Below, piece after piece: positions 23,322 to 52,509 of a DNA stretch of 64,000 bases. The stretch is taken from positions 1 through 64,000 of IMG/VR virus record IMGVR_UViG_3300005264_000003; one strand, given 5' to 3'. The notes under the pieces are model-generated. The model was not told the origin of the DNA and did not search any database. It saw nothing but the letters and a program-made list of their open reading frames with translations. The number at the start of each line of letters is the position of its first letter. Positions within the stretch are counted from its first letter, which is position 1. Made by a program: the position numbers and the translations under genes. Origin of the DNA: a virus.

Positions 23322-23337
23322 TTATTAACAAGGTAGC

Positions 23338-26810: not shown

Positions 26811-26819
26811 CAATAGGAA

Positions 26820-26839: not shown

Positions 26840-26869
26840 GGACTATTAATCTATTCGGAGGAATAATTA

Positions 26870-27493: not shown

Positions 27494-27524
27494 TATTGCT
27501 AACAAGCTGAATGCACTATCTCTT

Positions 27525-27572: not shown

Positions 27573-27598
27573 AAAACTTTATATAGGAGAAGCTAAGA

Positions 27599-28915: not shown

Positions 28916-28917
28916 GA

Positions 28918-30399: not shown

Positions 30400-30437
30400 T
30401 ATGCTTATTAACACATACAACCTAAAAGGAGACAAAT

Positions 30438-30854: not shown

Positions 30855-31429
30855 TGTCAAAATATAAAATCTCTACCAGTGATTACACGATAGTATTTAA
30901 CTCTATAAGTGCAGAGGATGCAGACAGGTATCACAGAATAATAAAGCAGACAGATAGCGCAGAGGCTGAAGAGATGTTATTCTTGTCAATAGTGGAAGAT
31001 AAGAGCATTGACATAGAGTCACTCAATGCTGGCGTTATACCAACAGTGCTGTATTGCGCATTTCATATATCTGGATTTATAACTATAGATGAGTCTGTTC
31101 CAGACAACATAGAGAAGGCTAGAACTAGAATAGCAAGTAGCCTTTATCATTCCTTACTGTATCCAGCTATAATAAAGACTCAGCCAGGGTATACATTAGA
31201 TATGCTGCGGAGCAAAAGCTTAAATGACTTAATGGAACTATTCGCTTTAAGCGAGATAATCCTAGGCAAAGACATTGTCAATATCGAAGAAATGAGAAAA
31301 ACTATTGCTGAAAGTAAACAAAATAAAGTTTCTCCATCTGCTGGCGGAATTGCCGGAGTAACATCAGAAGAGCTTGACTTAGTTAAGTCAATGATTGAAG
31401 CGGAAGAATTTAATAGCGAGATATTCTAA
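30854..31429 (+). CDS. Second tail assembly chaperone-like protein
   Basis: Shares an AG-[IV]-x-x-T pattern with the upstream gene; TAATG coupling on both sides. Confidence 0.55.
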   Translation: MSKYKISTSDYTIVFNSISAEDADRYHRIIKQTDSAEAEEMLFLSIVEDKSIDIESLNAGVIPTVLYCAFHISGFITIDESVPDNIEKARTRIASSLYHSLLYPAIIKTQPGYTLDMLRSKSLNDLMELFALSEIILGKDIVNIEEMRKTIAESKQNKVSPSAGGIAGVTSEELDLVKSMIEAEEFNSEIF

Positions 31430-34400
31430 TGAGCAGTAAGCCAATAAATCCTATAACATTTTCGGTAGATATAGAGGCTAATAATCTCCCCACTGACTTT
31501 CATATAGTGAGAGGCCTTGGGGAGCCCTTTAGGCTTCCTGACCTAAGCAAGATGGTGGATGGATTTGCAAACGTAGATATATATCAAATTGGATACATGG
31601 CCAATGGTGAAAAGAAGCATGTTGACGTAACTGAAACTACGTTTAAGCATCCCGAGGTCTCTACGCCATTAAAGTATTCAGAAGAATATATAGACGCTGC
31701 TGGCAAGACGCGTTCGTTTAAGAGAGCTACTACAGTTACAGCATCAAGAGAAAGCTATGAGTCTCTATTCAAGTCTAGTGTAAATAAGATGAATGCTGCA
31801 TCTACCGAGCAATATAGGAAAAAAGTACTGCCCTACTACTTACTGCAGGCTAGGAAGAATACTCAGTTCATGCTAGATAACGGTGGATCAATTGGTGCAA
31901 TGCCTTTTGATGTATTCATAAAGCCATATGAAGAAATAAGAAGAATAGCTGAATCTCCTGAGAATGGGTTTAAGTATAGTCAAGTTACGCAAGCTAACTT
32001 TAGAGGTAAAGGTACAGACTCTCTCTATGAAGCAATAGATAATCTTGTCAGCTCAGCTAGCTCTAAGGATGCACCAGCTGTATTTAGATCATGGAACCCA
32101 GCATATGATGCGCCAGTTATACTGGCAGCACTACAGAAGTCGGGGCATACTGCTCTGGCAGACAAGTTTATTGCACAGCATAAGTCTGGACTATTAAAAA
32201 TACAAGGCATAGAAGATGAGTGGCATGAAGTTTTATGGAAGTTAACTAAAGAGAATCCTGATATAGCAGATGATATAAGAGTAGGAATGCACCCAATAGC
32301 AGCAATTGCTACGGGTCGGCCTGGTGGCAAAGTAACTACGTATGGAGAATTTAAGTACTCTACATATAGCTGGAAGCAAGAGGACATAGCTAAGCTTTTC
32401 AGGGGACATAAGAATTTTAGAGACATAGGCCATATAGCATCAACAGATATATTACAATCAGAAGAGCTTGCTAGTTTTATGCAGGCAGTAAAAGAAAGAG
32501 CTAGGAAAACTCTTGGACTTAAAGAGGCTACAGAAGCATTAAATCTAGAAGATACAGGCAATGCATTTACAGATGCCTTTAATGCTGAGATAGCTAAGAC
32601 CTTTGGTGATAATGGCGCTACGACAGCAAGGGGAATGCTAAGAGAAGCAACTATAGATTCAAAGAGGAAGAATAAATTCTTTAGACAAAACTTTGGATCA
32701 TGGTTTGCTGCTGACACATCTAAAAGAGCAAGAGCAAGCTGGACAAAATATCCTGGAGTTATAGGAGCAGCAATTGCAGTAGCAGGAGCAACATATTTAG
32801 CTAATAGTGAAACGAAGACAAGTCTAGGCAGCGGTTTTTCAAGTATCAATGGAGTTCCTATAGGCAAAGGCATTGGGTCAGGAATAGACAAGGACAGTCC
32901 TAATCTTGGCGCTAATATGGTTGGCGCTATGGCATCAGGCATTGTTGTGCCTGGAATAACAATGGCAGCTATTGGATACGGAGCAGCGCAAAGACATCCT
33001 ATGCTGGGATATTCTCCATCTAAGCCTGAGACCTTTACGCAGGCCTGGAATCAAATTAAGAGTACGATAAGATATGGCATCAAGACTACAGAGGGTCAAG
33101 TATCTTTAGCTCGCGTATTCGAACTAGGAAGCTTAACAGATTATTTTTCTAGCAGTAGAACTTACTTGGCTGGAAAAGGCAAGAGTGGTAATTTGCCTAA
33201 CGGAAAGCCTGGCAGGTACTATAAGTTTAATGTTATACAGACAAAGAATGGCATAACAAGAGTACTTGATCAGAAATCACCAGGCCACGGCATGGACATG
33301 ACTAAATTTATGCATGTACTCAAGCGGGATAATATATCTCAATATAAAAAACTAGACAGTATTCTTAATCCAAACATTAAAGATATGGCGCCTGAAAAGA
33401 GGCCTTACACAAGGCAAATAAGAATAGCATCCACAGTTGGCGGTGGAACAAGAGTGCAGTGGGACGACTATGCCACTGAAAGCTTCGGCAAGGAAAACAG
33501 AATAACGAATTATTTATTAATAGATAAACATATAGGCATAAATAAACTACGGGACGTAATACCGCAAGCTGCCAATCTGCATACTAGGCAGACTGATAAA
33601 AATAATTTGCGCAGCACGAATACAGCAGCCAGGGAAGCTGTTCATAGGGATATGTATAGATATGGCGGGTTTGCAAAAGATGAATACGAAGATTACATGG
33701 GCAGGCTTGTTAAGCCTGGATTTGCCAGAAGAAGCGAGCTTGGTAACACTGCGTGGCGCGGAGCCGAGAAGTTAAGATGGATGTTAGATCTGAACTCGAA
33801 GAGTGTTGGTGAGGCTAACAATTTACTTATACCTAATGTAGCTGAGACGCTTAATAGCACGAAGGCTGTAGTGCTAGTAAAGGATGCTAGATACTATGCT
33901 GATGTAATACCAAACTGGCTCATTGGTAGCATGGATAGATTCCTTGAAACTCCATTTGAGTTCTTAGGAGTTGAGCATGGTAAAATAGAAGGGCTTGCTA
34001 ATAAATTGAAAGCATCCCCCAACTTTACAACTAATACATTCGGTAAGGCATTATCTGCTATAGAGAAGCCTCACTTCGGATTAGGACTTGCAGCAAATGG
34101 TGGGTCTGCTTCTAGGTATCTGATGTCATTTGGACTCAAGAGAGTACTGCCTGCATACCTAGCTATAAACATGTTCTCGCTTACTGATCACTTACTAGGT
34201 GCAGCTACTATGTCTCCTACTGGAAGAGGACCTCTTACATCTGTTCCCATAAAAGCATATGAGACAGCATCCTTGCTATATACTAAGATGTCCGATATTG
34301 TAGGGCTAACTGATTATGCAAAATGGCAAGCAGATGTTGCTCCTGGATCTACGGGTATCGGAATATTCGCTCCCGCTGCGACAATGACTGCAACTTATTT

Positions 34401-37284
34401 TATGGGTGAGGTAGCATATAAGCATGGGCCAGATTTTATTGGCGGAGCAATAGACAAGGCTGCAAAGAAAGCAATTGAGCATCCATTCTTACAGAAAGCA
34501 CTTAGAAAGGAATCATTTACTGGTGCAGTTTCTAGGGGGCCAGTGGAAAGGTTCATGTCTTATGCTATTAAGAATCCTAAAAAGGCTTTGTTTGGATTAG
34601 CAATGTTGCCTGCAATACCTTTTGTTCCAGGATTCCTCGGATCAGATAAAAACTATATGGAAAAAAAGGCTGAATACGATGGCGAAAAAGATGTTGCCAT
34701 TAGAAAGTATCGTGGATGGCTATTATCTTCATCTCCATTTGAGGGCGGTAGAGTTAGATCGTTTCGTAGGCATGCTTTAAATTTGGTTGAGAGCGACTTT
34801 GAGAACAGAGGGGTAGTCTATCCTTCTTTCGCAGAAAGATTTGCTCACAGCGCAACCCTAGGCCTCTACAAGCCTAATATGCTAGAGGAGTACCACAAGG
34901 AATCGCAGCCAGTATATAAATCTGCTCCATTCGGAGCAAACATTCCATTACTTGGTCCTTTGATAGCCGGTACGTTGGGTCAAATAATTGGACAAAAAAC
35001 ATATCACGTTCCAGGAGAAACAGCAGGAGAGGGCGATGGAGTTGGATATGATATGGGCATCGGACTAGAGCAGTCATTAAGTGATGGCGAGTCAAGAGCT
35101 ATGATTGCTGGTGATGGTAGTACTGGATATATAATGGGCCTAGAAGATCCTGCATCTTTAAACTCTATGGCTTCAAGATTTGCTGACACACTTTCTGATT
35201 TATCCGGTTTCCGTGGCTTTACAACAAAGACACTTTACAGTCGAGGATCAGGAAAGTCGCTGCCAGATGATTACACACCATATGCGCAAGATGCAAGTCA
35301 AATGTATAGTCCCGCAGAGCAAATGTGGCAATACAATCTTGGTGACATAACAGTAGTTGGTGGTGAGTTTTTACGTCGTGTATTACAAAATTCTGAGAAG
35401 AAGTGGCAAGTTAATGATATACCGAACGAGTTAATGGGAGTAAGCTGGATACCGCAGAGTGATAATTATGGTAAAGACTTAACTCATGGCACCACTTTCG
35501 ACAAGGTAGACATGGGTTGGCTTTACGGAGCTAGAAAAGGCTGGGAATTTTTATACCCAGGAGAAGCTAATGGAGAAATGGAAACATATGGGGCTCCAGT
35601 AAGAACAGAAATATTGTCTCATATAGCACCTTACTCTAGACAGTATAAACAAGAAGCAAAAAAGACATTAGACATGGCTCTTGACGATAGAATAGATCCA
35701 AGAAGAGAGCAGAGATTCTATGAGACTCTAGAACAAGTTTCTCAAGTTAAAGAACAGTTATATGCTACGGCAGGAGAATATACACATACAATAGATACAG
35801 AAAGTAGATCTGGTGTAGTGCAGTCAATGGATGAGTCAACTGGGTCATTTATGATTAATAATACGCAGTATAGGCTGGCTGGGGTATCTACAAATGAGGC
35901 TGATATAAGATCAAGGCTATTGCAAAAAAAAGAATTTGAGAATGCTAGACAACTAAGCGCTGAAGTGCAGAGAGTTCAGCTTCAAACAGCAGAGATAATG
36001 AGAAGCAATCTAGCTCCAGGCACGCATATAGACATGGACGTTGCTACAGCAGCAATGCTACCTAGTGCTACTAACCTGGGATATGAAGCGAGAATCAGCG
36101 GACTTTCAGAAAAGATGCTTGAGGCTGGTGCTGCTTTTGCTGATACCGGTAACATAGCAACACATAACATGGCGCAAGATAGACATGGTATGTTTAGTAA
36201 GCTACTAGCTTCGCATTGGGAAGGAATGACGTCAGTTAACTCGTATTGGAATAAGAAGCTTATATCTCAAAGAGACTATCTTGATAACTATACCACTAAT
36301 CAAGTATTTAACCGAGAAGTAAAGCTTTGGACTAGGCCTATCGATCACATACTAAAGCCGTTTATTGCATCAACTATGCATAATTGGTTCGGGCTAGATG
36401 CGATACCTTCATTTACTAAGCAGCGCAGAGCTACTCAGCAGTATTGGGATATATTAAAGTATATAAAATACAAAACACTATCTACTAAATCTAGGGCTGA
36501 CGGAGATCTTGATTCAGCTACTTACTATGAAACTCAATGGAGAAGCACTATGGTAGGTGCTGATCCAACCAATGAAAGCAAGAGAGACGAACTAATGGCT
36601 CTTCCTGGAAATGAGAGACAGTATTTTAATTACTTCTCAGCTGAATCAGATCCAGATAAAAGATCTGAAATATTTAAGTATTTACCAGAGCCAGCTAAGA
36701 GAATATATTCAAGCATATGGCTAAAGAAGATGGCAGAGACGTCGAGTAACCAAGAAGTTCAAGCAGCTTGGGCAGGACTAAAATCATCTGAAGGCTGGAG
36801 TCTTTCAGAGGAAGAGGAAGCTGACTATATAAATGAAACTAATGGCAATGTATCTAAGGGCGACTGGGCTAGAGCAAGATTTGTACAGCAATATGCTAGA
36901 GAAAATGATCTTCCTGGACCTGAGTGGTCAGGCTGGAACTCAAATGTAGATATAGATAACACACAACTGCTTTCATTAATGGAAGATGGAGAGAATGCGC
37001 AAGACTATGGATTTTTTGATAGTAAGATACGTAAAGCTCTATATGACGATGATGCATATAAGGCAGCAACCGATATAGATTCGGCTAGTACCACTGCCAG
37101 CGTATTAATGGGAAGCGCACTTCCCTATTTAATGGAAGATAGCATGTCTTTATCTTACGCCGTGCCTGTAAGTATGTCTAGTCCTACTATTGAAATGAAT
37201 ATAGAGACTAATGGATTCAATAAAATATTAATGAGAATGAATGACTTAGGGTCATCACTACTTCCTGATGAATTCCTAGATTAA
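31429..37284 (+). CDS. Tape-measure-position giant protein (1951 aa): N-terminal DEDDh 3'-5' exonuclease-like domain, hydrophobic segments, degenerate SNase-like region
   Basis: ExoI SVDIEA (D14,E16), ExoII SWNPAYD (D227), ExoIII HIASTD (H335,D340); YRLAGVSTNE near residue 1480; follows the chaperone genes. Confidence 0.7.
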   Translation: MSSKPINPITFSVDIEANNLPTDFHIVRGLGEPFRLPDLSKMVDGFANVDIYQIGYMANGEKKHVDVTETTFKHPEVSTPLKYSEEYIDAAGKTRSFKRATTVTASRESYESLFKSSVNKMNAASTEQYRKKVLPYYLLQARKNTQFMLDNGGSIGAMPFDVFIKPYEEIRRIAESPENGFKYSQVTQANFRGKGTDSLYEAIDNLVSSASSKDAPAVFRSWNPAYDAPVILAALQKSGHTALADKFIAQHKSGLLKIQGIEDEWHEVLWKLTKENPDIADDIRVGMHPIAAIATGRPGGKVTTYGEFKYSTYSWKQEDIAKLFRGHKNFRDIGHIASTDILQSEELASFMQAVKERARKTLGLKEATEALNLEDTGNAFTDAFNAEIAKTFGDNGATTARGMLREATIDSKRKNKFFRQNFGSWFAADTSKRARASWTKYPGVIGAAIAVAGATYLANSETKTSLGSGFSSINGVPIGKGIGSGIDKDSPNLGANMVGAMASGIVVPGITMAAIGYGAAQRHPMLGYSPSKPETFTQAWNQIKSTIRYGIKTTEGQVSLARVFELGSLTDYFSSSRTYLAGKGKSGNLPNGKPGRYYKFNVIQTKNGITRVLDQKSPGHGMDMTKFMHVLKRDNISQYKKLDSILNPNIKDMAPEKRPYTRQIRIASTVGGGTRVQWDDYATESFGKENRITNYLLIDKHIGINKLRDVIPQAANLHTRQTDKNNLRSTNTAAREAVHRDMYRYGGFAKDEYEDYMGRLVKPGFARRSELGNTAWRGAEKLRWMLDLNSKSVGEANNLLIPNVAETLNSTKAVVLVKDARYYADVIPNWLIGSMDRFLETPFEFLGVEHGKIEGLANKLKASPNFTTNTFGKALSAIEKPHFGLGLAANGGSASRYLMSFGLKRVLPAYLAINMFSLTDHLLGAATMSPTGRGPLTSVPIKAYETASLLYTKMSDIVGLTDYAKWQADVAPGSTGIGIFAPAATMTATYFMGEVAYKHGPDFIGGAIDKAAKKAIEHPFLQKALRKESFTGAVSRGPVERFMSYAIKNPKKALFGLAMLPAIPFVPGFLGSDKNYMEKKAEYDGEKDVAIRKYRGWLLSSSPFEGGRVRSFRRHALNLVESDFENRGVVYPSFAERFAHSATLGLYKPNMLEEYHKESQPVYKSAPFGANIPLLGPLIAGTLGQIIGQKTYHVPGETAGEGDGVGYDMGIGLEQSLSDGESRAMIAGDGSTGYIMGLEDPASLNSMASRFADTLSDLSGFRGFTTKTLYSRGSGKSLPDDYTPYAQDASQMYSPAEQMWQYNLGDITVVGGEFLRRVLQNSEKKWQVNDIPNELMGVSWIPQSDNYGKDLTHGTTFDKVDMGWLYGARKGWEFLYPGEANGEMETYGAPVRTEILSHIAPYSRQYKQEAKKTLDMALDDRIDPRREQRFYETLEQVSQVKEQLYATAGEYTHTIDTESRSGVVQSMDESTGSFMINNTQYRLAGVSTNEADIRSRLLQKKEFENARQLSAEVQRVQLQTAEIMRSNLAPGTHIDMDVATAAMLPSATNLGYEARISGLSEKMLEAGAAFADTGNIATHNMAQDRHGMFSKLLASHWEGMTSVNSYWNKKLISQRDYLDNYTTNQVFNREVKLWTRPIDHILKPFIASTMHNWFGLDAIPSFTKQRRATQQYWDILKYIKYKTLSTKSRADGDLDSATYYETQWRSTMVGADPTNESKRDELMALPGNERQYFNYFSAESDPDKRSEIFKYLPEPAKRIYSSIWLKKMAETSSNQEVQAAWAGLKSSEGWSLSEEEEADYINETNGNVSKGDWARARFVQQYARENDLPGPEWSGWNSNVDIDNTQLLSLMEDGENAQDYGFFDSKIRKALYDDDAYKAATDIDSASTTASVLMGSALPYLMEDSMSLSYAVPVSMSSPTIEMNIETNGFNKILMRMNDLGSSLLPDEFLD

Positions 37285-37294
37285 CGGAGAGCAT

Positions 37295-40200
37295 ATGTCA
37301 TACAACAATCCATACGATAAAGAAGACGGAATACTTGGTACTATTGTGAAAGGCACTGCTCTTACTGGTGCAGGCGTAGTGGCAGTTAATGCTTATAGAA
37401 ATCCAGAAGCTACAAGACGTAAGTTTGGTCAAGCAATGGACATGATTGCTCCAATTAAGAGCCCTAAGCTTAATCCTTATCAGCAGAGACTAGCAAGAGC
37501 GAATGAGATTCTATTTAGCACAGTAGCAGAAAGAGATGCTAGAATTAAATCAAAAGATAAAATTAGAGCAGCAGAAGCCATGCAGATGACTGGGTCTAAA
37601 AGCTCATGGTCTGCAATAACGCCTGTTGCACTACCAATTGGAGCTGACAGTAAGCAGAAAGTATTGAATGAGATTTCAGCTCAAGTTAGCGAGTATTCAT
37701 TTGAGAAGCTAGATGACATTCGCGATATAGACAATAGGCCCATTGGAAACAAAATACATAAACAGCTTAAAAAGAAGTTTCCAGGACAGATAACAAATGC
37801 TCCTAAGTTTAAAGGTACGAGAGCTACATGGAGGATAGGAGGCGAGGATCTAGAGATAGATTTCTCTAAACGCATAGGACAAACTGAAGGCTTCATGAAG
37901 CGCATAGGTGAGTCAATGTATGTAGCTCCATGGAGAGCAGACCTTCAAAGCGTCGATGGGAAACTAGGGTATCAGTTATCTGATCCCAACACTGATATAT
38001 TAAGCTTCCTAAGCGATATGAATGATGAAAATGGAAATGGTAGATTATTCTGGGGAGTAAATGAGAATAGCGAGGTAAGAAGTAAGTTTGAGAAATTAAC
38101 AGGCAGTGGAATGGATAGTAAAAGGGCTATGGCTAAGCTTAGATCTGAAGCAGAGAAGTATTCATTGAGAGAGTTAGATGTAGTCAGGAACTTGCAGGAA
38201 GCAATTAAAAGAGAAACAAGAACTGATACGCAAATAGCCGATAATGATATTATAGGAAGAAATATGCACGCCTCGAAGGTGCAAGTAAATGAGCACAGCG
38301 CATATCTTGTTGGGCAAATGCCTGCTCATAGAGGAGTTGGGTCCAGAGCTCTTGGTACTGGTGCCATTAATAGTGATGTAATTGACGGCAAGAACGTGCA
38401 AGAGTTATACGATATACATACAAATTCAACAATGGATAACAATCTAATAACAATATCTACTAGCGGCAATACTAGTAAAAGAATAAGAGAGATGGCTATA
38501 AAGCATGGAGGCTATGTAGATAGCCAAAGCACAGTTGCTGAACTTGGTTGGAGCATGAGAGTAGGATCTACAGCTGCATATGCTGAAAGAGAGAAAAGCT
38601 TTAAAGGAATAATGTTTGAAAGCCATAAGCTTGCCAAGACTCCGTTTAGTGGCGTAGGAGGCACGAAGATAGATAGTGATGCATTGGCTAGGATTAGACA
38701 CAACTTCTTTATTAATGATGATGGTGCAGATAGTGATTTCAAGTATAGTTCTCATGTACAAAGCAAGGCTATTGTACAAAAAAATAAGGGCGTTTATAAT
38801 ATGGCTCTTGCTTTAAGTCCATTTGAATCTGAAGCAATAATGATAGGAGACGCAACTAGCGAGAACATGAAGACACTTGCTCCAAAGACAACTAGTGTAG
38901 CAGCAATGGCCATCAAGAAAGGCGATAAGGCATATGAAAAATCTTTCGTTGAAATGAAGTATTTCGATGTGGATTCTAATTCTCAGAAATCATTCACAAA
39001 TCTTACGCTTCAAGACATAATGGAAGATTCACACAAAAGCAATATTATGACTCAAGGATTTGGTGAGATACACATAAAGAGAGGTACGATATTAGGCAAA
39101 AAGCCAGTTGGTCAAGAATTACTCAATGATGGCACTGTAAATGATATAATTGCTAGAGAAAGCGGAATTATAAAAACACAAGTCAACAGGCTGATTGGTA
39201 GAGATGATTATATATCTACATTAGCATCACATAACAGAATGATTGTTGATGGTCATAAGCTAGCAGGAGGAGTTAAGATTGTATCACAAGTGCATGAGGA
39301 TGCAGTTAAGATGGCACTTAGCAATGTAACTACACGTAACACGACTAACTTTAGAGACAATGAATTAGTAAATGAATTGACTCAAAATGCAGGGCTTGGT
39401 AAAGCAGAAGGTACTATGTCACTGGACTTTCTTAAAAAAACACTTCCTAAAAAGGGTCCAAATAACAGAGTAGTGCTTGGTAAGGGTTCTTCTGAGTTAA
39501 TGCAAGTTTTACAGTCTGCGATTGGGTGGCAGGCTCTGCAAGGTGATCATGATGTAAAATTAAAAGGTAAGGCGGCACAGCAGTTCTCTAAGTATATTAA
39601 TAATGGTAACACTCATTTAATTAATGGAGAGTTAAACTTATCAAAGATCATGAAGAAAGGTAACTTATCTTTCAAGCAAATGATACATGATAAGAAGTTA
39701 TTCGCAGACCAGTATGAGCACACAATTGAAACACTTGGCCTAATAAGAGAAGGGTTTGGCAATGGAGATGCTCAAACTATTATTCAGCCAATGAGAGGAA
39801 GTGTAGACATAGGCTTTTCATCAAAAGGAGCTAAGTCTGCAGCCACAACAATAGACACTCACATAAGGCAACTTGAAATACTTGGAGAAAGAGCAAAGAG
39901 TGGCACAAATGCAAGGAAGCTTCTTGCAAAACAAATAACAATTGGTGAGATAGCGAAGACAGTTACAGCTAATGCCAGGGAATTAGCAATGGGTGTAATT
40001 GGTGGTGTAATGCCTCAAGAGCAAGCATGGAATTCTATAGGTAAAGAGTTTAGTGAAATGAAATTATCTTCTAAGGCAATTTTTAATTTTTTAGATAATC
40101 CAGAAATACTTAGAGACCTAGGCGTCAACAGTACTACTCCTGCTATTAAAATGAGCAACGAGTTAAGACTTATGGAAAGTGGAGCCAGGGGCCATAATAT

Positions 40201-42685
40201 TAATGGAGCACTAAAAGCCTACGGTGACAGCTTTGGGCATATACCTCACCTTAAGGATCCAGGTGATATACTTAAAATGCTAGGTGGTGTGAATGCATAT
40301 GATGACATAACTTTAAAGAGGCCAGAGGTTGCTCTTAATACATTCTTAAATTCTGGGCACAGCTTTGAAGACTCCAAGGGTAATATTATAAATAACAGGC
40401 ATGGGTTTACAATAGAGGCTGACGGAAAGAAATTATACATACCAAGTGGAGATGTATGGTCTGGGTATGTTACTGAAGATGGGTCTACTACGTTTGATAG
40501 TATGTTTCTTAAGACTCAGAAAATGCTAAGAGGCTTAACGGTACGAGATGGGGAGCCTGGAGATATTGAGGGATGGACTAAGTCATTATTTGGAGAACTA
40601 GGCAACTCAAAAGAAGGACTAAGAGGACAGGCAACATTAAAGGTAGATGGATCTTCATATGTTAAGGTTGCACAAGATTATAGATTATTACAGAACGATG
40701 TATTAGGTGGAGCAATTGATTCATGGGATACAGATGCTAGCTCAAAAGAAATTAGATATGCAGCATCAGAACTAAAGCACTTACTTGGCAACAGCTCTGC
40801 TATGTCAGCTGACGACTTCGATAGTCAAATTAAGCAAATGCTTAGTGAGACATTTGAGCAATCTCAAGATAACTCTACGTTAAAAAGATCAATGAATGAA
40901 ATACTTGTCGCTCAGTATGGAGAAGGACATTTCTTGGCTAAGTATGAAAGTAAGATTAACTCCATAAAAGCTAAGGAAGATATAATACCGCTAGTAGAAA
41001 AAATTACCTCTGATCAAGTAAAACTTAGTGATAAAATAGCTGATATGTATGAAGAGTTTGGCAAGACAGGCAATGCTAGTCTCTATAATGATATAATGAG
41101 CGAGTCTAGAAATATGCATCAGTCTTATAGCATCAGATACCCGCATATACTACAGGGCTCTCATTCACAAACACCTACATTTATAAGCAAAGCAATAAGA
41201 CGTGGTACAGTAGCGCTTGGTAATATAGACTTAGTTAACAAGAATGGTGACCATGATGGTGATGCAAATTTTGTGAAAGGAATATACAGTAGGGCTACGA
41301 GAAATAAGACGTTTGAAATGATAGATGTGCAGCAAAGAGAAGCATTTAAGCACATGAGCCTTAGAATTCAAGGTGTAATGGCCGACATATTTCAAGGAGG
41401 CGTTGACGCTAAAGGTCCTGCGCTTGCAGCTTCAATAGATGGAGCAAGCTCAGTAGCGGAAACGATACTAAAGACAAACCCAATGGCTACATCAGTTGCC
41501 TCATTTATGACAAAAGCTGTTACTGGTGGCTTTAATGTTGGAGCTCTACAGACAAAAGGTTACCTTGGCATGATACAAGAGAGCTTAGGCTTATCAGAGG
41601 ATCATATAGCTTCAATGAATTCATATTTTAGCAATATGATTTCAATGACAACAGAGCAGAAGATAATTGGATCAAAGCAAATGGAAACAGTTATAGGTGA
41701 CTTTCAAGGCTTACCAGATGAAAATAAAATGAAAGGCATACTAGGCATGCTTAATCAAGATGATTATATGGAAAAGTCCCTCCAGGATATAAGATCTACC
41801 GGTAAAGTTAATCCATTAATTGGCACATGGGCATCAGATGCAGCTAGGCATAACAATCCAAAGGAAATAAGAGAAGTTGCACAGGCAGTCCTTAATTTTG
41901 CTGATATGGAAAACGGATGGCAAGAGTTTGGAGAGGCAGATTTCAGGTCTACCATGAACATTATAGGACACAAAGAAGATGTTATAGATACAATGTGGGA
42001 TCAGTATATAGAAACCATGGCAGTAGAGAGGCAGAATCTTGCCTCTAACAGTGAAGCTATGAGGGCTGCAGGATTGCAAGATAAGCAGCTATTTGAAATA
42101 TGGGGAGACGCATTGCGCAGCAAGGACCTATCTGCATCTGAGAATATCAGCTTTATCTTAAGTAAAAAGAACTCTCCAGGCGAAGCGCTTGCAGCACTTG
42201 ATCTTAATCGTCAAATGTCAATAGCAGGTAACATGCTTAATCTTCCAGAAATGAGCAACACGCTACCTCAGAAAGGAAGAAGGATAATAGGGTATGATAA
42301 GTTACAGGATGGCATATCATGGATGATGGATCCAGTACACGGCGGAGGGCCTGTTAGGATGGCTGGAGTTGCTGGTATTGGACTGGTATCAATGACTGCG
42401 CTAAATGTCTTGTCTGGTGATGGCACACTGGAAGATCCAGGCGATTTACCTAGCGTCAACAATCCATCCTTTACATCTAATAGAGGCAGTGGTAATATGT
42501 CCATGAGTACACTTTCATCTAATGTTGGGCTAAACTCTAATATAAACTTATTAACAGATAATACAATGAGTCCAACAAGTGCTATTGGTATGATGCAAGG
42601 TATGCTTGGGTACCAAGGCAACACAATATCTGTTAGACATGACGGTGAAGATCCTTATAAGCAAGACCTTATGTATTATAAATAG
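37295..42685 (+). CDS. Putative single-chain two-barrel virion RNA polymerase (1796 aa)
   Basis: Beta-like FESEAIMI (~510) and DGHKLAGGVKIVS (K655, K661); beta-prime-like IRYPHI (R1281) and NGDHDGDAN (from N1317; DxDGD triad). Confidence 0.75.
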   Translation: MSYNNPYDKEDGILGTIVKGTALTGAGVVAVNAYRNPEATRRKFGQAMDMIAPIKSPKLNPYQQRLARANEILFSTVAERDARIKSKDKIRAAEAMQMTGSKSSWSAITPVALPIGADSKQKVLNEISAQVSEYSFEKLDDIRDIDNRPIGNKIHKQLKKKFPGQITNAPKFKGTRATWRIGGEDLEIDFSKRIGQTEGFMKRIGESMYVAPWRADLQSVDGKLGYQLSDPNTDILSFLSDMNDENGNGRLFWGVNENSEVRSKFEKLTGSGMDSKRAMAKLRSEAEKYSLRELDVVRNLQEAIKRETRTDTQIADNDIIGRNMHASKVQVNEHSAYLVGQMPAHRGVGSRALGTGAINSDVIDGKNVQELYDIHTNSTMDNNLITISTSGNTSKRIREMAIKHGGYVDSQSTVAELGWSMRVGSTAAYAEREKSFKGIMFESHKLAKTPFSGVGGTKIDSDALARIRHNFFINDDGADSDFKYSSHVQSKAIVQKNKGVYNMALALSPFESEAIMIGDATSENMKTLAPKTTSVAAMAIKKGDKAYEKSFVEMKYFDVDSNSQKSFTNLTLQDIMEDSHKSNIMTQGFGEIHIKRGTILGKKPVGQELLNDGTVNDIIARESGIIKTQVNRLIGRDDYISTLASHNRMIVDGHKLAGGVKIVSQVHEDAVKMALSNVTTRNTTNFRDNELVNELTQNAGLGKAEGTMSLDFLKKTLPKKGPNNRVVLGKGSSELMQVLQSAIGWQALQGDHDVKLKGKAAQQFSKYINNGNTHLINGELNLSKIMKKGNLSFKQMIHDKKLFADQYEHTIETLGLIREGFGNGDAQTIIQPMRGSVDIGFSSKGAKSAATTIDTHIRQLEILGERAKSGTNARKLLAKQITIGEIAKTVTANARELAMGVIGGVMPQEQAWNSIGKEFSEMKLSSKAIFNFLDNPEILRDLGVNSTTPAIKMSNELRLMESGARGHNINGALKAYGDSFGHIPHLKDPGDILKMLGGVNAYDDITLKRPEVALNTFLNSGHSFEDSKGNIINNRHGFTIEADGKKLYIPSGDVWSGYVTEDGSTTFDSMFLKTQKMLRGLTVRDGEPGDIEGWTKSLFGELGNSKEGLRGQATLKVDGSSYVKVAQDYRLLQNDVLGGAIDSWDTDASSKEIRYAASELKHLLGNSSAMSADDFDSQIKQMLSETFEQSQDNSTLKRSMNEILVAQYGEGHFLAKYESKINSIKAKEDIIPLVEKITSDQVKLSDKIADMYEEFGKTGNASLYNDIMSESRNMHQSYSIRYPHILQGSHSQTPTFISKAIRRGTVALGNIDLVNKNGDHDGDANFVKGIYSRATRNKTFEMIDVQQREAFKHMSLRIQGVMADIFQGGVDAKGPALAASIDGASSVAETILKTNPMATSVASFMTKAVTGGFNVGALQTKGYLGMIQESLGLSEDHIASMNSYFSNMISMTTEQKIIGSKQMETVIGDFQGLPDENKMKGILGMLNQDDYMEKSLQDIRSTGKVNPLIGTWASDAARHNNPKEIREVAQAVLNFADMENGWQEFGEADFRSTMNIIGHKEDVIDTMWDQYIETMAVERQNLASNSEAMRAAGLQDKQLFEIWGDALRSKDLSASENISFILSKKNSPGEALAALDLNRQMSIAGNMLNLPEMSNTLPQKGRRIIGYDKLQDGISWMMDPVHGGGPVRMAGVAGIGLVSMTALNVLSGDGTLEDPGDLPSVNNPSFTSNRGSGNMSMSTLSSNVGLNSNINLLTDNTMSPTSAIGMMQGMLGYQGNTISVRHDGEDPYKQDLMYYK

Positions 42686-42695
42686 AGGTAAATAA

Positions 42696-45600
42696 ATGTC
42701 GATTACGAATGAAGAGTTAGTAGAAATCCTAAAAGAAGCTGACCTGTGGCCACCAGTTAAGAAAGCTCCGGCAACTAGCATTAAGAAAGTGCATTCAGTA
42801 CCAGAAGGATTGGTTACATATCATAATAAAGTAATAACTAGCCTTGTTGTTGTCGATGGTGATACGATTGAAATCGTTGAGCCTGGCATTGAAGATAATG
42901 AGTCTATACGTTATTATGGAATTGATACAAATGAAACAGCCAAGGACTGGCTAGGCAAGCCAGAAGAAGATTATGCTAACTGGCAGACACAAGTACATGA
43001 TGAGCTAATAAGATATGCTATAGACAAGAATCTTCATATAGAAATAAGTGATCACCTAGCAGGTTACTTCGGTCGTACTGTAGCTGATATACGAATAGAC
43101 GGATCTAGTGTATCAGGAATATTCGTAGGAGCAGGCATTACTCCGCCCAGCATGGGGGCAGATACGAAAGTAGTTCCAGATACATCTATTACTAAAAATC
43201 AAATCATAGCAAACTATAACACTGCTATGCATAAGCGTTCTGGTATCTGGAAAAATGTTGGCGAGTATGTCTATCACCCCAATAACAATATTGACGAAAA
43301 ACTTATAATTGACCTGTTTAATGATACATATTCTACTAAAAGAAAACTAGGTAAAGGCATAACTAAGATTGGTGACGTGTATCTAGATATACCTCCTACG
43401 CAAATAGCTATTACTCAACTCAGAACATCACGCTCTGTGCCTCAATTGGGCGGTGAATCAAAGCCTATTAGTGAAAACTCAGCTAGAACAATCATAAAAC
43501 TTCACTTAGTGTTCTCAGGCGAGGAGACTATAAACACTGATCTGGTAAGAATTTTACAGCAATTTAGGTACTGTCCAATAAACCTGCTTTACTCTTTCGA
43601 TATATTTGAGAAAGTTGTAGGCGATAATAAATATCTACTAGAAGGATATGGTCAAGTAGATGATGAGTGGTTTATACCTGTAACAATGGATGAGTATACT
43701 ATACATACAATTGAAGGTCATCCATCCTCGCTTGGATGTGTCTTACAGTTATCTTTATTTAACTATGCAGCATACTTTAATGGAGATATAGCAGAGAAAG
43801 TTCAGTATTACAAATATGAAATTGAAAGTGGAGAAGTCGACTCTAAGAGATCTTTAGCTGGTGTAAATAGAGACTTTGTATACACTTCACACCTAGAAGA
43901 AGCTGTGCATCCATATAATTTATATATAACTAGTCACTTAAAAGATAAGTTGCACATGTTTAATGGTTCAGATAGCTATACTGAGCTATTCAAGGTAGCA
44001 GGCACTAGAACTCCCCCTAACTATGAAGCAATTAGCGCTAAAGATGCAGGTAGGCTTTCTGATGAACTAGATGAGCTTTACTTGATACTTAGCTCTAGAG
44101 TTAAAGAATTAACAATGTCTACGAGTATCTTTTTTAGGAATAACTTTACATGGCTGCCAGTTATTGGATACTCACAACCAGTTGCACAATACATAGGGCC
44201 TGGAGACTCTGTAGTTACACTCGAGTTGCAAACTGAGGACAACTCAGTTATATCTAGTTTATTAAATACATTCGGAGAAGAATCAACAACAAGTATTGTT
44301 GATACATTTTATGATGATAGATATATATTATCTAACTCACTTACCAGATTGTGTGCTACTGAAGTCTGCAGTATGAAGAATTTTTCAATGTCTAATGTTA
44401 GTGGTCACCCAGATGCGTCAGTTATTAATATGGTATTTTGTAAGACAGCATATGCCACTACAGCAAATGAGGTTAATCCTGTTGCTGAGTTTGACGAGTA
44501 CTGGGGTCTTCAGAGAATATTAAAATCACTAGACAAAGAAGACATGGAGGCAATTGAAACTGAACTCAAGAGCGATAGAGTTACAAGACTAGACATTGGC
44601 GACAGTGCTGACTCTTTCATTAGGCTGGCAGAGAGAAGCGGAAAGACTGATACGGAAAAGAAGGTAAATGAAAAAACAATAGCTGCTATGACAGTTGCTC
44701 TTAATAAGCTAAAGGGACATAAGAATTCCATGGAGTTTAATGCCCCTGAGTTTCATTTGCTTCAATTTAGAACTAACTTAAATTCAAGTATATTAAGTGC
44801 ACGAATGAGCGGTTTGTCTGGAAAAATTATTCTTCTAGATGGATTGAGCATGTATTCAAGAATGACGGTGTCTCAATTCCCTGCTAATAAAACACTAGAT
44901 CAGCTTAATCTTAATGCGAATAAGGCATATAAGACTTACTATGGTGGAATGCTTAGTTCTTATCCTCGCAGCCGGGTTGCCAAAGAGATGACTAGAAACT
45001 TCAGAGATGCCTTAGGCGGACACGGAGAAGCATCTAGGATATTAAGAGCTTATGTTAGTAAGGTATACGCAGGCGGATGGCTTACTAGTGATATAACAGG
45101 ACCGCCAGTAAGCTTACTAGATTTAAGCGAGAAGCTGCATGAAGAATACCTTAATCCTAGCTATAGTAATGACTATGTAAATAGAATTAACACTCATGGC
45201 ACCTATAATGGACATGGATGGGATCTTTCTGATTACGATAGATGGATGGGTAAGCTGGTTGACAAGTTATGTCATGCAATTGAAGCTAAGTCAACTGGAT
45301 TGCTTTCTAAGTTTAAAGAGAGGTGGAATGAGCAGTCTCTCCTAGAAAGCAAGGGATACTCTGTTATAATGAAGTTCGTTGGCACTGCAATAGAGGCTAG
45401 AGTTATTAAGACTGCTTTTATTTTAGGTAGCAGAGACGCTAATAGGAAAGAAGAAGTGTCTGAGGCAAGAGAATATTTCCATACCCCAAGGAATATATCG
45501 TACCCTTCATTTTCAGTTATATATAATGCAGATGATGGTACAGAAGGAACTGATTTAATACTAACAGATAGTGATGCTAATGGAGAGTCTAAAAATTGGA

Positions 45601-48600
45601 CATTTCAGGTAACATTTTTTCCTTCTGAGCACAATGAGGGCATTAGTAGATATTGGCACGAGGAGCCAGACTCTGAAGCTGCATCTGAAGCTGAGCTCGA
45701 AGAAGCTAGAGCAAAAATGGATGTAGTGTCACATGGCAATATAGTTATACCTTATGCTGGACATAGGTATTTCCCTAACATAGACTTATACCTGAAGCAT
45801 CAAGAGATATTCTCTACTACCGTAGGGGAATGGTTTGCTAATAAATATATAGAGGACCCATATAAGATTTTCGAGCAAGTATCTGAATCAGTAGAGCAGT
45901 CTATAGCTCCACTAATGGATAGGCCGGCATGGGAAGCTACATACATTGAAAGAAGTCATGGTGTTGCATTTGCTAACAAGATAGCAGAAGACCCACATGA
46001 TCCATGTAAGTTAGTTGCAGCTATTAACTGGATGAGTTTTGGTAAAGATTTCAGTGAAGACAATCGAGACACAGCCTTATTAAAAGGCAAGCCTAATAGC
46101 ACAGTAGATCGCTGGATAAATAAATGCATACCAGATATGATTCTTAGTAGCGAAGATGGTAGCCCTAAAGATCTCGACGTTCCTTTTAGTACTGTTCATC
46201 AGTGTGCTGCCCTTAGTAGTGGCTACTATGACTCGGCTAAGTTTCAAGGAAAAGAGATAGTTGCATTTAGAATGAATGTAATGAGTAAGACAAGTATGTC
46301 TCTCAATACAGCAGGACAAACATCTAGGGGATATAATCTTCAAAACAAGATGTGTGCTATAGAGTCAGATGGTGCACTATACTTGCCTTCAGATGTGCCT
46401 GAAGCTTCACTTGCTGGCAGCATAGATGATTCAGCTAAGTTCATTCATTCTCCAGCAGACACGCAAATACACTACGGAGGCAACTATGCAAATGGGTGTG
46501 ACTTGACATTATTGCAAAAGCACCCAGAGGGATTCGCAAAGGAGCTAGGGCGAGAACAACCTGCATTACAAGCGCTGGGTCAGAAAGATGGATTAAATAC
46601 AATTGAAGCTGACGCAATGCTTAGGGAAAAATTCTATAAGATATTACTAAAAAGCAACAGTAAAGGTGCCGAGTTCAGTAAGTCGCCAGCACAACTAAGG
46701 GGTATAGCTAAGAGTCACGTAAGTACACTTAAAGACTCTATTGCTCCAGCTACAAATATTTACTATATGACAGAGAAGCTAATAGTAGATTATCTAAGCA
46801 ACGGAGTAACGTCTGAACTAAAGGCTGATTTAAAAATAATAGTATCAAAGTACATAGCAGACTTTGGCCCCTTAATAGATGATGCGACAAAAGAGTTGGT
46901 ATCTAGAAATGCTCTTGAATCTATGATGCCTACTATTGGGATAGAAAATGCATTTCCTACATATAAAATGTATATAATTGAAGAAGACATGTCTGATATA
47001 AGATACTTCTCAATGGATGATTGGTATGATCTTAGGACAGCTCAAGACTTGATGATTGTAAAGTCTAAAGACAATCCAGCACATATGCTTAAAGGTAGAA
47101 TTATAGTAGATCATAGATATATAATTACTAGCGACAAAGTGAACCAGAAAGTTTCTGATATTAGCAATCCTCAGGAATTTGAAGTTGAGGCACCAGCACC
47201 GGGGATTGTTGATACTAGGGCTGAAAACCATTTCAATAAAGGAATGACTCCGTTACGAGAAGGTATGAGAATTTGCATTAAACTAGGCTACCACTCTGAC
47301 CCAAGAGCTATGGACACAGTCTTTATTGGTACGATTACAGGACTTAGTGGCAACATGAGTACTGGCGTATATGACCTAGAGGCTAGAGGTGATGGTAGAG
47401 AGCTACTAACTCCTCCGTCACAAGATGTAAAGCCTAATATCTCAGGAGAGAATTTTGCTGAGATTATATCTATTATGATGAGAAATAGCCCTGCTGTTAT
47501 GCACTTTGGAAGAACATATGGTTCATTTTTAGAGAAATTCTCAAGAAGGCACTGGGCGCTATTTGCACTTGCTAAGCACGGAAGACTATCTAAGTCTCAT
47601 GTTTTTGGAGCCGTAGGTATGTCAATGGGACTAGCTGCAAGATCAGCAATCAGGCAGGCAGCCATGAAAGGATCTCTTTCTGAGGAAACTGGCATGGGCA
47701 TGTGGGCGTACATGATTCATTCATTTAGTCGAAAGACTATGTCTGTATATGAAGAAACAACAGCCTTGTATAACAATACGCTTTTGCCTTTATCTGACAA
47801 AGGATCCCATGAGAGATGGGCTGCATATAGTAATAATATATTTGACGGCGATGATGGTAAATGGGGTATCTTTAGCTCAGAGTTTGGTAACGCAAAGTTC
47901 TCTCAAGTAAAGGGCTGGTTAGCAGGAAATACATTTGATCCAAGAAAGGCTAGTGCTCAAACTGCCGGCATACTATATAATACATTCAAGCAAGGCAATA
48001 ATCCTATTGATGATAACATATTCGCTATTGATATTTGGAATACTTTTGTTCCATGGCGCACATTTGACATGCCAATCAATAACACAAGAACTATTTGGGA
48101 TGTGCTTGTTGATATTAAGAGAATGTATCCAAACTTTGCACTTGACGTAAGACCGTATGGGTCTAGATCTACGCTATTTATGGGGCCTAAGGAGTTTAAT
48201 ATATGGAGAACTGACGACCCACTACAAGCAGTTGCTCCTCAGTTAGCCGAGATAACTACCAATGAGGCATCATGGGATGATAGTTTTAGCTATAACTTAT
48301 CAGCTAAAGATGCCCTTAGGTCACAGGTTATATTGGATAGATTTGGTGACCGGAAGCCATCAGAAAACAATGTAGCAGGATGGGTGCCATTTCAAAGGCA
48401 GCATACGGTATCTTCTTTCAGTGACATAGTAATGAATGGCATCCGATCTACTCCTTATAGAGGATGGAATAACGTCGTAGTAACGTATTCAAAAGGCCCT
48501 GGCGATAACGAGAGTAGGGCTCCTATTATGCAGTCTGCCAATGCAAACTTAGATCCAAAAGCTATTAGAACAAAATATGCTAATATAGACTGGACAGATG

Positions 48601-50424: not shown

Positions 50425-50435
50425 CAGGAGTTAAT

Positions 50436-50834: not shown

Positions 50835-50863
50835 GTTATTAACAGATATCTGGAGAATATAAA

Positions 50864-51294: not shown

Positions 51295-52509
51295 ATGGCT
51301 ACCTACAGAGATAAGTTAGAGAGAATACTGCAGTCCATGCAAGAAAGAACAGGGATGACAAACTTACTTCCTGGGTCCAAGGCATATCAGTTAGCTGAAT
51401 CTTACGCATATGAGCAAATGCTTCAAGAAGCCAAACAGGAAGATTGGACTAGTAGCAACAGTATATCTGAAGCTAAAGGCGAGAAGCTTGATGCTATATC
51501 TAAAGGGTTTTTTAAGATTCCTAGGCTAGAAGCTGTGAGGTCATATGCGTCCAGCTCAATGAAGGCTCTTAAGTTCTATACTGATGATGGATATACGTTC
51601 GGGTCCATCAATACAGATGAATCATCTAACGTTACTATGCAGCAAGACATCATTATAAACGAAGGAACTACGATAAGCGGAATAAGGGATGGCTTAATTT
51701 ACAAGTTTAGAGTTATAGAAGATACAGTACTTGAAAAGAGTAGTAAGGAAGCATACGTAAATGCTGAGTTAATTCAAGGTGCTTCAGATAATATTCCAGC
51801 TAATATCTTAAAAATTCATAACTTTACAAATTATTCACAATCAGTTAATGGCTTACTTAAAGTTACCAATCCTGTTCCAGTAAACAGCGGTAGGCCCAGA
51901 GAGCTAGATGAAAACTACAGGTTTAGACTTGCTAACTCAATGAGAGCATTTCCAAAGACAACATCAGTAGCTATACATCAGCAAGTTACAAGTATGCCTG
52001 GAGTGTCAGACGTATACATAGAGACAGCTGCGAATGGCGGAGGTACTTTTACTGTTTACGTACAAGGCACTACTCCAATAACAAGCAATGACTTAATAGA
52101 GGATGTTAACTTGTCATTATCTCAAGTCATTAATCCTTGGCAGGTCACTTACACTGTTACAAAGCCGCGTTATCTTGGAATATCTGCATCTTTAAATTTA
52201 GTATTTAAGGATGGTTTTAACCTGGCAGCATCTGAAATAGCAGTTAACTCAATCATAAATTACTTAAATAACTTTAATGGTCAAGTGTTTTATGTTAATT
52301 CAATTCTTAGCATAGCGCAGGGTGTACATTCAGACATACTTGATGTATCATTTAATTATGTAAGATTACATGTTGGATCTGAAGATATTCGATCCTATGA
52401 AGAGTTTAATTTAACAGAAGACCCTAACCCTACAATAGTACTGGAAGTTAAAGAGAAGCTAATTTCAGAGCCTATAACAAGTGCTATCATAGCTGTACCG
52501 GTGGTGTAA
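51295..52509 (+). CDS. Baseplate J-like protein
   Basis: AKGEKLDAI, VTNPVPVNSGRPRELDENYRFR, MPGVSDV and GTFTVYV. Confidence 0.9.
   Translation: MATYRDKLERILQSMQERTGMTNLLPGSKAYQLAESYAYEQMLQEAKQEDWTSSNSISEAKGEKLDAISKGFFKIPRLEAVRSYASSSMKALKFYTDDGYTFGSINTDESSNVTMQQDIIINEGTTISGIRDGLIYKFRVIEDTVLEKSSKEAYVNAELIQGASDNIPANILKIHNFTNYSQSVNGLLKVTNPVPVNSGRPRELDENYRFRLANSMRAFPKTTSVAIHQQVTSMPGVSDVYIETAANGGGTFTVYVQGTTPITSNDLIEDVNLSLSQVINPWQVTYTVTKPRYLGISASLNLVFKDGFNLAASEIAVNSIINYLNNFNGQVFYVNSILSIAQGVHSDILDVSFNYVRLHVGSEDIRSYEEFNLTEDPNPTIVLEVKEKLISEPITSAIIAVPVV

Follow-up and report, generated by a model that had tools for sequence, protein, structure and literature searches.

A candidate single-chain two-barrel RNA polymerase encoded among the tail genes of a contractile-tailed phage

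Phages that carry virion RNA polymerases (RNAPs) can begin their programme independently of the host enzyme and thereby evade both host shut-off and inhibition of the rifampicin type. The known examples are the giant enzyme of the short-tailed phage N4, a T7-like single-subunit polymerase of unrelated fold that is expelled to start transcription; two-barrel enzymes that consist of a single chain, in crAss-like phages, which are short-tailed, and in Thermus phage P23-45, where polymerase and siphovirus tape measure form one polypeptide; and multisubunit enzymes in phiKZ-like jumbo phages. Here we compare with these systems the product of ORF B (protein P0001), an open reading frame (ORF) located in the first 64,000 nucleotides (hereafter the window) of IMG/VR virus record IMGVR_UViG_3300005264_000003. 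The P23-45 virion RNAP, gp96 (PDB 8H2M/8H2N), is the N-terminal portion of a tape measure with 5002 residues in a long non-contractile tail; it is proposed to transcribe pre-early genes at the entry pore and is followed by a second, non-virion single-chain RNAP (PMC10770324). In phage phi14:2, the gene for the giant virion-type single-chain RNAP gp66 (6VR4), which also has two barrels, has on either side a gene whose product likewise occurs in the particle (10.1101/2020.03.07.982082), and crAss-like phages are reported to carry a DFDxD motif. The phiKZ/AR9-like jumbo phages have contractile tails and two-barrel RNAPs of their own, both virion and non-virion ones, that are split over four or five subunits (PMC7598289; PMC7824862), and the N4 polymerase leaves together with two other ejection proteins (PMC13434306; PMC12633501). 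QDE-1 of Neurospora and the plant enzyme RDR2, both eukaryotic RNA-silencing enzymes, and the YonO-like polymerases are single chains in which a beta-like barrel lies ahead of a beta-prime-like barrel.

Judging from conserved motifs and predicted folds, the ORF B protein is very probably a two-barrel RNAP. That it is in addition an active, DNA-dependent enzyme that is carried in the particle and starts the infection is a fuller reading, which we hold with somewhat more confidence than doubt. We group the protein with the two-barrel polymerases of the single-chain branch (QDE-1, YonO, gp66, gp96 and gp64, the non-virion enzyme of P23-45), which it resembles in its presumed way of working. Like gp96, it would be a single-chain two-barrel RNAP with a DxDGD motif (DFDGD in gp96) and is encoded among tail genes, but in its contractile-tail module ORF B stands alone, with stops on both sides, 10-nucleotide (nt) gaps and a conserved length class, and not as part of a tape measure. 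It has no metallopeptidase domain in Pfam, and sequence similarity to gp96 is not detectable. No tape-measure family in PHROGs or Pfam matches ORF B, and its modelled core is a globular polymerase fold. With phi14:2, the likeness is in the pair of flanking genes, which resembles the triad formed by ORF B and the giant ORFs A and C on either side of it; gp66 is absent from the sequence and fold matches listed, and a relation to ORF B beyond the superfamily is not evident. The beta-prime-like subunits of the phiKZ/AR9-like enzymes are the best profile matches of the ORF B family, but ORF B holds both barrels in one chain. The order of the two halves is that of QDE-1, RDR2 and the YonO-like enzymes, and QDE-1 is the top structural match, whereas these enzymes have neither the terminal hydrophobic segments of ORF B nor its tail-gene context, and their Pfam family PF05183 (RdRP) has no match to P0001. 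The parallel with N4 is one of function only.

Database searches with the single sequence did not recognise the protein. P0001 had no match in Pfam at E<=1 or in PHROGs at E<=0.01, a phmmer search of all PDB sequences returned a beta-glucanase at E 2.2 and nothing else, and tblastn against 50,697 phage records gave no match. Because a word-indexed search with P0001 yielded one relative only (P0002, 23% identity across the full length), an exhaustive HMMER search was needed to reach the family; with residues 480-1679 as query against 1,835,955,588 representatives, it returned 20 proteins at E<=1e-3, 15 of them at <=1e-10 and 6 at <=1e-30, besides P0002. Family members are mostly 1731-1898 residues long, with 12 full-length homologues in that class. 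The 19-row family alignment (A1) has a mean column identity of 26%, and the lowest pairwise identity to P0001 is 19%. ORF B founds a rare sequence family that has no description in current libraries. The original prediction expected annotation as hypothetical, which is borne out: among the cluster members examined, the six from the family with a named source are all called 'hypothetical protein'.

The near-invariant columns of A1 are concentrated at G1165, R1281, P1283, S1289, D1319, D1321, G1322, D1323, T1406, G1411, Q1455 and K1461 (Table 1; counts per column refer only to the rows covering that column, and one fragment stops short of the triad block). ORF B is a real gene, with an ATG start and a ribosome-binding site (GGAG) 7 nt upstream, and every motif string on which the polymerase was originally proposed is present at slightly shifted coordinates, namely ALALSPFESEAIMIGD, IVDGHKLAGGVKIVS, SIRYPHI and the DHDGD block. 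The three Asp of the latter, for which conservation had been predicted, are kept in all rows that cover them. In contrast, the two Lys of IVDGHKLAGGVKIVS, K655 and K661, had been read as retained lysines of the beta subunit, and we reject them as catalytic candidates owing to their poor conservation: position 655 is Lys in 3 of the 11 rows having a residue there, and position 661 in 7 of 15 (with Arg in two more). K672 and R681 are better candidates for the beta-like basic residues on the basis of their conservation, and G601 is likewise invariant (15/15 rows) in this half. The His of DHDGD, described as rare, also carries no weight as a feature and was discarded, since its position varies freely across the 18 rows (four F, four W, three H, two Q, and L, V, Y, T and one more). 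The corresponding block of P0002 reads NADFDGD, which we take to be the exact bacterial beta-prime signature.

The layout suggested by motifs and models is as follows. Residues ~490-935 would form a beta-like half with one double-psi beta-barrel (DPBB), K672, R681, K730 and E513, and residues ~965-1350 a beta-prime-like half with the second barrel, the R1281-x-P motif and the predicted Mg-binding triad D1319-x-D-G-D1323. Beyond the beta-prime-like half, a long helix bears the block T-K-A-x-T-G at residues 1406-1411 (T1406 18/18, K1407 17/18, T1410 17/18, G1411 18/18), presumably resembling the K-T-A-x-(S/T)-G-Y of beta-prime and Rpb1, and would be the bridge helix; the following T-E-Q-x-x-I-S-S-K-H block is possibly the trigger-loop region. 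This core is flanked by an N-terminal region of ~490 residues that starts with a hydrophobic segment and, on the other side, by a C-terminal hydrophobic segment and a conserved tail.

The A1 profile was compared with 177,635 distinct PDB sequences. The best three matches were phiKZ gp55 (7ogp_A, E 0.068), the beta-prime-like subunit in the non-virion polymerase of that phage, and AR9 beta-prime (7s01_d, E 0.085; 7s00_d, E 0.093). In all three, the alignment register is that of R-x-P...D-x-D-G-D. What matters in these matches, which are a comparison of sequence profiles, is that rank and register coincide, not the E-values.

We also examined predicted structures. The core (residues 480-1679; model numbering starts at protein residue 480) was modelled with AlphaFold from a 21-row alignment (mean predicted local distance difference test score (pLDDT) 76.2, predicted template-modelling score (pTM) 0.73), and residues 485-835, the N-half, were folded separately with AF2 (pLDDT 77.4). 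Models were compared by Foldseek, for which our statements concern the best 50 matches, and by VIA-align, a Foldseek-independent aligner, against 48,161 representative chains; VIA-align Z values under 8 can reflect a common arrangement. The Foldseek comparison of the core with the PDB, a check proposed with the original prediction, gave only RNAP chains among its best 50 matches, all of them beta-prime or beta-prime-like chains or QDE-1, with AR9 7s00_d (E 6.2e-4) and 7s01_d (E 7.3e-4) as the best. When the Foldseek candidates were aligned with VIA-align, QDE-1 7y7t_B came first (Z 10.4, root-mean-square deviation (rmsd) 4.1, 291 residues aligned, model residues 19-1157 against residues 680-1160 of the chain), followed by E. 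coli beta-prime 7mko_D (Z 9.8), RDR2 (Z 9.5) and phiKZ gp55 8que_A (Z 9.2). In the VIA-align search of all representative chains, RNAPs filled ranks 1-15, in the order QDE-1 7y7p_A (9.9), M. tuberculosis beta-prime (8.6), phiKZ 7ogp_A and AR9 7s00_d (8.4 each), vaccinia Rpo147 (8.3) and P74-26 gp62 (8.2), with Pol II, plastid, Pol I, African swine fever virus (ASFV), archaeal and Pol IV largest subunits lower in these ranks.

The extent of these alignments follows the proposed two halves. Single-chain enzymes cover both halves of the core, from model residue ~19 to ~1150, and these include P23-45 gp96, for which the comparison made originally proved apt: 8h2n_A aligns over model residues 19-1131 (259 residues, rmsd 5.6) at Z 7.5 and 8h2m_A at Z 7.3, both in the range that can reflect a common arrangement. 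Beta-prime chains align from model residue ~486 on and, like QDE-1, extend to ~1160, and beta chains (4c2m_B, 8qma_A and 6j9e_C) align at ~2-457. For the N-half alone, the top six of the VIA-align search were all second-largest RNAP subunits at Z 6.3-5.0, again under 8, namely Pol I A135 (4c2m_B, 6.3), vaccinia Rpo132 (6rfl_B, 6.1), ASFV (8q3b_B, 5.8), AR9 beta (7s00_C, 5.3), plastid beta (8qma_A, 5.2) and Pol IV (7eu0_B, 5.0); phiKZ, Pol III and Xanthomonas beta chains and designed DPBB proteins (Z 3.6) stood further down. The best 50 Foldseek matches of the N-half were likewise all beta/Rpb2-like chains (lowest E 1.8e-3). Two features of the double-psi RNAP superfamily are found in the one chain, DPBB-A with its DxDxD triad and DPBB-B, the latter with modest scores and uniform matches. 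Together with the invariant RxP...DxDGD and the phiKZ and AR9 profile matches, the two models uphold the original proposal of a single-chain two-barrel RNAP. Neither gp66 (6VR4) nor PolD is among the matches listed in the fold comparisons, which is no evidence of difference.

ORF B lies, as had been predicted, among tail genes, between those for the tail sheath and Baseplate_J. The further statement placing it in the position of a tape-measure gene is imprecise, as ORF B is the middle one of three giant ORFs with a 10-nt gap on each side, and ORF A takes the first slot after the tube- and chaperone-sized genes. ORF A has two hydrophobic segments (residues 497-515 and 1053-1071) and no match in Pfam, PHROGs or the PDB (phmmer). 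In ORF C, the N-terminus is SNase-like (Pfam E 0.0022, below cutoff; PHROG endonuclease E 1.9e-6), residues 1967-2062 match phrog_20474 'endolysin', a giant-protein PHROG, at E 1.4e-30, and residues 2070-2109 hold a cluster of hydrophobic segments; phmmer against the PDB gave no useful match. FG-GAP and fibre-repeat proteins are encoded downstream of the Baseplate_J gene. The whole record has 87,348 bp, of which the window is the first 64 kb, with 38% G+C, no terminal repeat and long ORFs on the + strand throughout; it carries structural-type genes only and is incomplete. Window DNA was found in DNA sequencing runs from one marine-sediment study, one of which may be the source; no RNA run is among the sequencing runs listed as containing it.

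Table 1. Positions of the features discussed (window coordinates unless a relative is named; residue numbers refer to the ORF B protein)
Feature	Position	Strand	Remarks
ORF B (P0001)	37295..42685	+	1796 amino acids; single-chain two-barrel RNA polymerase candidate; family n=20, predicted folds
N-terminal Gly/Ala-rich hydrophobic segment, residues 13-31	37331..37387	+	Kyte-Doolittle 1.64 (19-residue window); G..AG consensus kept in homologues
Beta-like half with second double-psi barrel (DPBB-B), residues 485-835 as folded	38747..39799	+	VIA-align and Foldseek match beta/Rpb2-like chains
ALALSPFESEAIMIGD, residues 504-519	38804-38851	+	first motif
E513, acidic residue of first motif	38831..38833	+	13 E + 2 D; acidic in 15/15 rows
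IVDGHKLAGGVKIVS, residues 650-664	39242-39286	+	contains K655 and K661
K672...R681, invariant basic pair K-x8-R	39308..39337	+	each 15/15 rows
K730, invariant Lys	39482..39484	+	15/15 rows
Beta-prime-like barrel region (DPBB-A), residues ~1119-1349	40649..41341	+	isolated/designed DPBBs align at model ~640-870: 7dww_A Z 5.8, 7dbo_B Z 5.5 (Z under 8 can reflect a common arrangement)
SIRYPHI, residues 1279-1285	41129-41149	+	contains R1281-Y-P1283
R1281-Y-P1283, beta-prime NRxP equivalent	41135..41143	+	R and P 18/18; aligned to RNP/NRNP of phiKZ gp55 and AR9 beta-prime
D1319-H-D-G-D1323, predicted metal-binding Asp triad	41249..41263	+	D, D, G, D each 18/18 rows
48-residue helix after DPBB-A with T-K-A-x-T-G, bridge-helix candidate	41444..41587	+	model residues 905-952
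T-E-Q-x-x-I-S-S-K-H block, possible trigger-loop region	41651..41680	+	Q1455, K1461 18/18; E1454 16/18
C-terminal hydrophobic segment, residues 1689-1707	42359..42415	+	Kyte-Doolittle 1.62; Gly/Ala-rich; family-conserved
C-terminal tail (..PND.PS.NNP.F ... LLTD ... VSVR.DG.NPY..DM..Y)	42416..42682	+	highest-conservation 30-residue blocks, 0.45-0.52
Giant ORF A	31429..37284	+	1951 amino acids; stop 10 nt before ORF B start
Giant ORF C	42696..50054	+	2452 amino acids; start 10 nt after ORF B
Terminase large subunit	6153-9071	+	972 amino acids
Portal	12153-14315	+	structural gene
Major head protein	18928-20136	+	structural gene
Tail sheath	24102..26810	+	phrog_16991 tail sheath E 5.4e-17
Baseplate_J / wedge	51295..52509	+	Pfam Baseplate_J E 2.7e-16; phrog_6 E 2.1e-29
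GTTATTAAC palindrome	23321..23329		immediately 5' of block containing the sheath gene
GTTATTAAC palindrome, next copy	50835..50843		past ORF C plus two small ORFs
Second DxDGD ORF, relative G001	L011:826-4449 = G001 95826-99449	+	1207 amino acids; opposite strand to structural genes; NIGRNP...MFGDVDGD

Two side observations concern the other structural genes. The two adjoining + strand genes after the sheath gene (26870-27493 and 27599-28915) both match phrog_9206 'major head protein' (E 2.7e-27 and 2.6e-18), a label that is doubtful given their position after the sheath; tail tube-type paralogues are more likely. The N-half of the terminase large subunit has additional helicase-like matches, and the counterpart region of a relative (G001 83877-86742, - strand) has two ORFs of 609 and 340 amino acids in place of the single 972-residue ORF, which may reflect a split gene or one with an insertion.

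The sheath-A-B-C block is likely one transcription unit. The palindrome GTTAWTAAC occurs seven times in the window (positions 1261, 15112, 17409, 20224, 23321, 50835 and 63152) against 0.72 expected, a number reached in 0 of 100 shuffles. Its copies lie mostly directly upstream of gene blocks, making it a candidate late promoter or operator. The two copies of GTTATTAAC at 23321 and 50835 bracket sheath, tube and ORFs A, B and C, which fits one late transcription unit. Within 31000-50900, neither sigma-70-like promoters (58 against 57.0 expected) nor intrinsic terminators (10 against 10.9) are in excess. The order of A-like (1961-1963 amino acids), B (1813-1829), C-like (2471-2623) and wedge genes is kept in both related IMG/VR loci (L003 and L004), and ORF B lies 10 nt from its giant neighbours inside the tail block in all three genomes seen. 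Further related-locus searches gave no match (A3 among metagenome contigs; A6 and A7 among viral contigs), so that synteny is limited to these two related loci. The contigs holding family members measure 217,861, 205,327, 125,202, 135,153 and 401,713 bp, and G001 measures 107,910 bp at a CheckV completeness of 52%; these values point to phages of ~200 kb.

Relative G001 encodes a second protein with a DxDGD motif outside its structural block. Its block NIGRNP...MFGDVDGD is invariant in 5/5 rows of alignment (the 1207-residue ORF and four homologues). Among the nearest protein-atlas clusters, 25 of 30 matches carry PF05183 RdRP (188-200 shared features at scores of 0.92-0.93); Rho_N is present as well in the first cluster, in agreement with a weak match of the ORF to Rho_N. 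A related-locus search with its profile (A5) found its own contig only among viral contigs and none among metagenome contigs. The replication genes of G001 include a primase-helicase, a ribonucleotide reductase fragment and RusA. The 1207-residue protein is a candidate non-virion YonO/QDE-1-like polymerase, and by analogy with P23-45 and phiKZ, G001 is a candidate for a two-step scheme, as seen in this one genome. Among the small ORFs beside the second polymerase, one (L011:6171-6815, + strand) has a ParE-like toxin domain (Pfam E 1.7e-19).

We propose the following mechanism. The ORF B protein would be a late product, expressed together with the sheath, the tube and the two flanking giants from one transcription unit, and would be built into the particle, either in the tail lumen with a tape-measure-like neighbour or in the head. 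Sheath contraction would then expel it, its terminal hydrophobic segments would keep it at the entry pore, and it would transcribe the first-entering DNA with no need of the host polymerase. In a relative, the YonO/QDE-1-like second polymerase encoded outside the structural block might take over, as in P23-45. Packaging of the ORF B protein is plausible because its tail-operon position, synteny and hydrophobic ends parallel the known ejected polymerases of P23-45, phi14:2 and N4.

Several points weigh against this interpretation. Pfam, PHROGs, phmmer against the PDB and tblastn against phage records all fail to recognise the protein, and the E-values of the A1 profile matches in the PDB (0.07-0.09) are higher than is commonly accepted as significant. 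Scores in the fold comparisons are intermediate, with Foldseek E-values of 6e-4 or weaker, TM-scores of 0.1-0.3 and VIA-align Z<=10.4 for the core and <=6.3 for the N-half, so that the case rests on the exclusive identity of the matches and not on the size of the scores. In this reading, K672, R681 and K730 would face the Asp triad and the 48-residue helix would act as a bridge helix, and we infer delivery by the virion from gene position and architecture. A folded core of ~130 kDa exceeds the lumen of a typical tail tube, and delivery would thus need an extended or unfolded state. As for the second polymerase, it is seen in one relative only and has no tblastn match in the present incomplete contig of 87 kb; its profile A5 matches no RNAP in the PDB, and the comparison of A1 with the 1207-residue ORF by hhalign is insignificant (E 0.19).

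If the enzyme is active, it might nevertheless be encoded in the late operon without entering the particle, with a role within the cell such as action on late genes or replication priming. The fold and motif evidence fits such an enzyme equally well, and non-virion single-chain phage RNAPs are known, such as P23-45 gp64 (PMC10770324) and the YonO-like enzymes reported in jumbo phages (PMC7824862). However, an enzyme first made alongside sheath and baseplate proteins would come too late for most of the programme, the tight spacing to giant neighbours in the tail block is kept in every genome seen, and the conserved hydrophobic ends and C-terminal tail have no obvious cytoplasmic use. G001, moreover, already has a separate polymerase outside its structural block. 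We consider a purely intracellular role unlikely. The template or product might also be another one, the protein being a QDE-1-like RNA-dependent RNA polymerase, a primase-like enzyme or a PolD-like DNA polymerase. Its top structural match is the RNA interference polymerase QDE-1 in both VIA-align comparisons, RDR2 ranks high too, and QDE-1 is reported to be both DNA- and RNA-dependent (PMC9508822); but the characterised phage single-chain members phi14:2 gp66 and P23-45 gp96 and gp64 transcribe DNA (10.1101/2020.03.07.982082; PMC10770324), and the genome is that of a tailed double-stranded DNA phage with terminase, portal and sheath genes. PolD chains are absent from the best 50 VIA-align rows, which does not exclude PolD. 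Overall, a different template or product seems distinctly improbable.

The tail-gene position, the terminal hydrophobic segments, a giant size like that of its neighbours and the lack of conservation of K655 and K661 would also suit a mainly structural, ejection or tape-measure-like protein in which the polymerase fold is a non-catalytic relic. Yet the putative catalytic residues (the triad, R1281 and P1283, K672, R681 and K730) are the most conserved ones, present in every row covering them despite the low mean identity of the family, and relics lose such residues; a relic is accordingly an explanation to which we assign slightly less weight again than to a different template. Finally, a protein of 1796 residues leaves room for short motifs to arise by chance in an unrelated fold, and the single-sequence searches were empty. 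Chance is hard to reconcile with a motif that is invariant across the family and with two independent models that return only RNAP subunits, beta-prime-like for one and beta-like for the other, by Foldseek as well as by the Foldseek-independent aligner, and we regard it as extremely improbable. We continue to favour a packaged, DNA-dependent RNAP, at the strength given above.

Similar proteins may be present in other phages. Against predicted viral structures, the best Foldseek match of the core model was A0A7R7G2L5_2 (E 1.6e-11), followed by an uncultured siphovirus 'minor tail protein' (5.3e-6) and uncharacterised proteins of Acinetobacter phage ME3 (2.2e-5) and Microcystis phage MaMV-DC (5.1e-5). 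In Ma-LMM01 (AB231700, L019), we noted two 'hypothetical' proteins on the - strand, ORF64 (8812-13833, 1673 amino acids, QRTP...NPLLWQAANEGDADGDQ) and ORF80 (22701-33389, 3562 amino acids, LNPISFITSNLGDFDGD), both with beta-prime-like RxP/NP...GDxDGD blocks. From these blocks, they may be unrecognised single-chain RNAPs of a cultured contractile-tailed phage. Alignment of A1 with either by hhalign was insignificant (ORF64 E 0.49; ORF80 E 0.14, with the DFDGD block aligned), and the A1 profile had no match at E<=10 in the whole ME3 and Ma-LMM01 records. The DxDGD pattern matches of ME3 lie in the small ORFs ME3_136 and ME3_307 and do not identify the structure-matched ME3 protein.

Neither for contractile-tail modules nor for Microcystis phages did we find a single-chain two-barrel polymerase described in the literature, although Supplementary Data 3 (23 RNAP families) and Data 4 (viral genome survey) of PMC10770324 may already include the family or the Ma-LMM01 proteins; titles and abstracts on Ma-LMM01 and 'RNA polymerase' make no such claim. 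Pfam, PHROGs and BLAST all miss the family, so that it shows what structure-guided reading recovers from 'hypothetical' giant phage genes, and alignment A1 provides a profile usable for annotating them. The Ma-LMM01 and ME3 leads would make the question testable in culture.

On a broader and more tentative view, which we consider possible but put at somewhat less than even, a lineage of ~200-kb contractile-tailed sediment phages may run a host-independent two-polymerase programme. The first enzyme would be a membrane-anchored, single-chain, cellular-type RNAP delivered through or with the contractile tail, as one of three giant ejected proteins of which the neighbours have nuclease- and lysin-like parts, and the same kind of enzyme may stand as 'hypothetical' in Ma-LMM01 (ORF64 and ORF80) and ME3. 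If the packaged-polymerase reading is true, the ORF B protein would be the first single-chain virion RNAP in a contractile-tailed phage. It would raise the physical question of how a 200-kDa enzyme exits through or alongside a contractile tail tube. Among virion RNAPs, a separate single-chain two-barrel enzyme within a contractile-tail module would represent a new solution beside those known and would extend the idea of a coupling of transcription to DNA entry.

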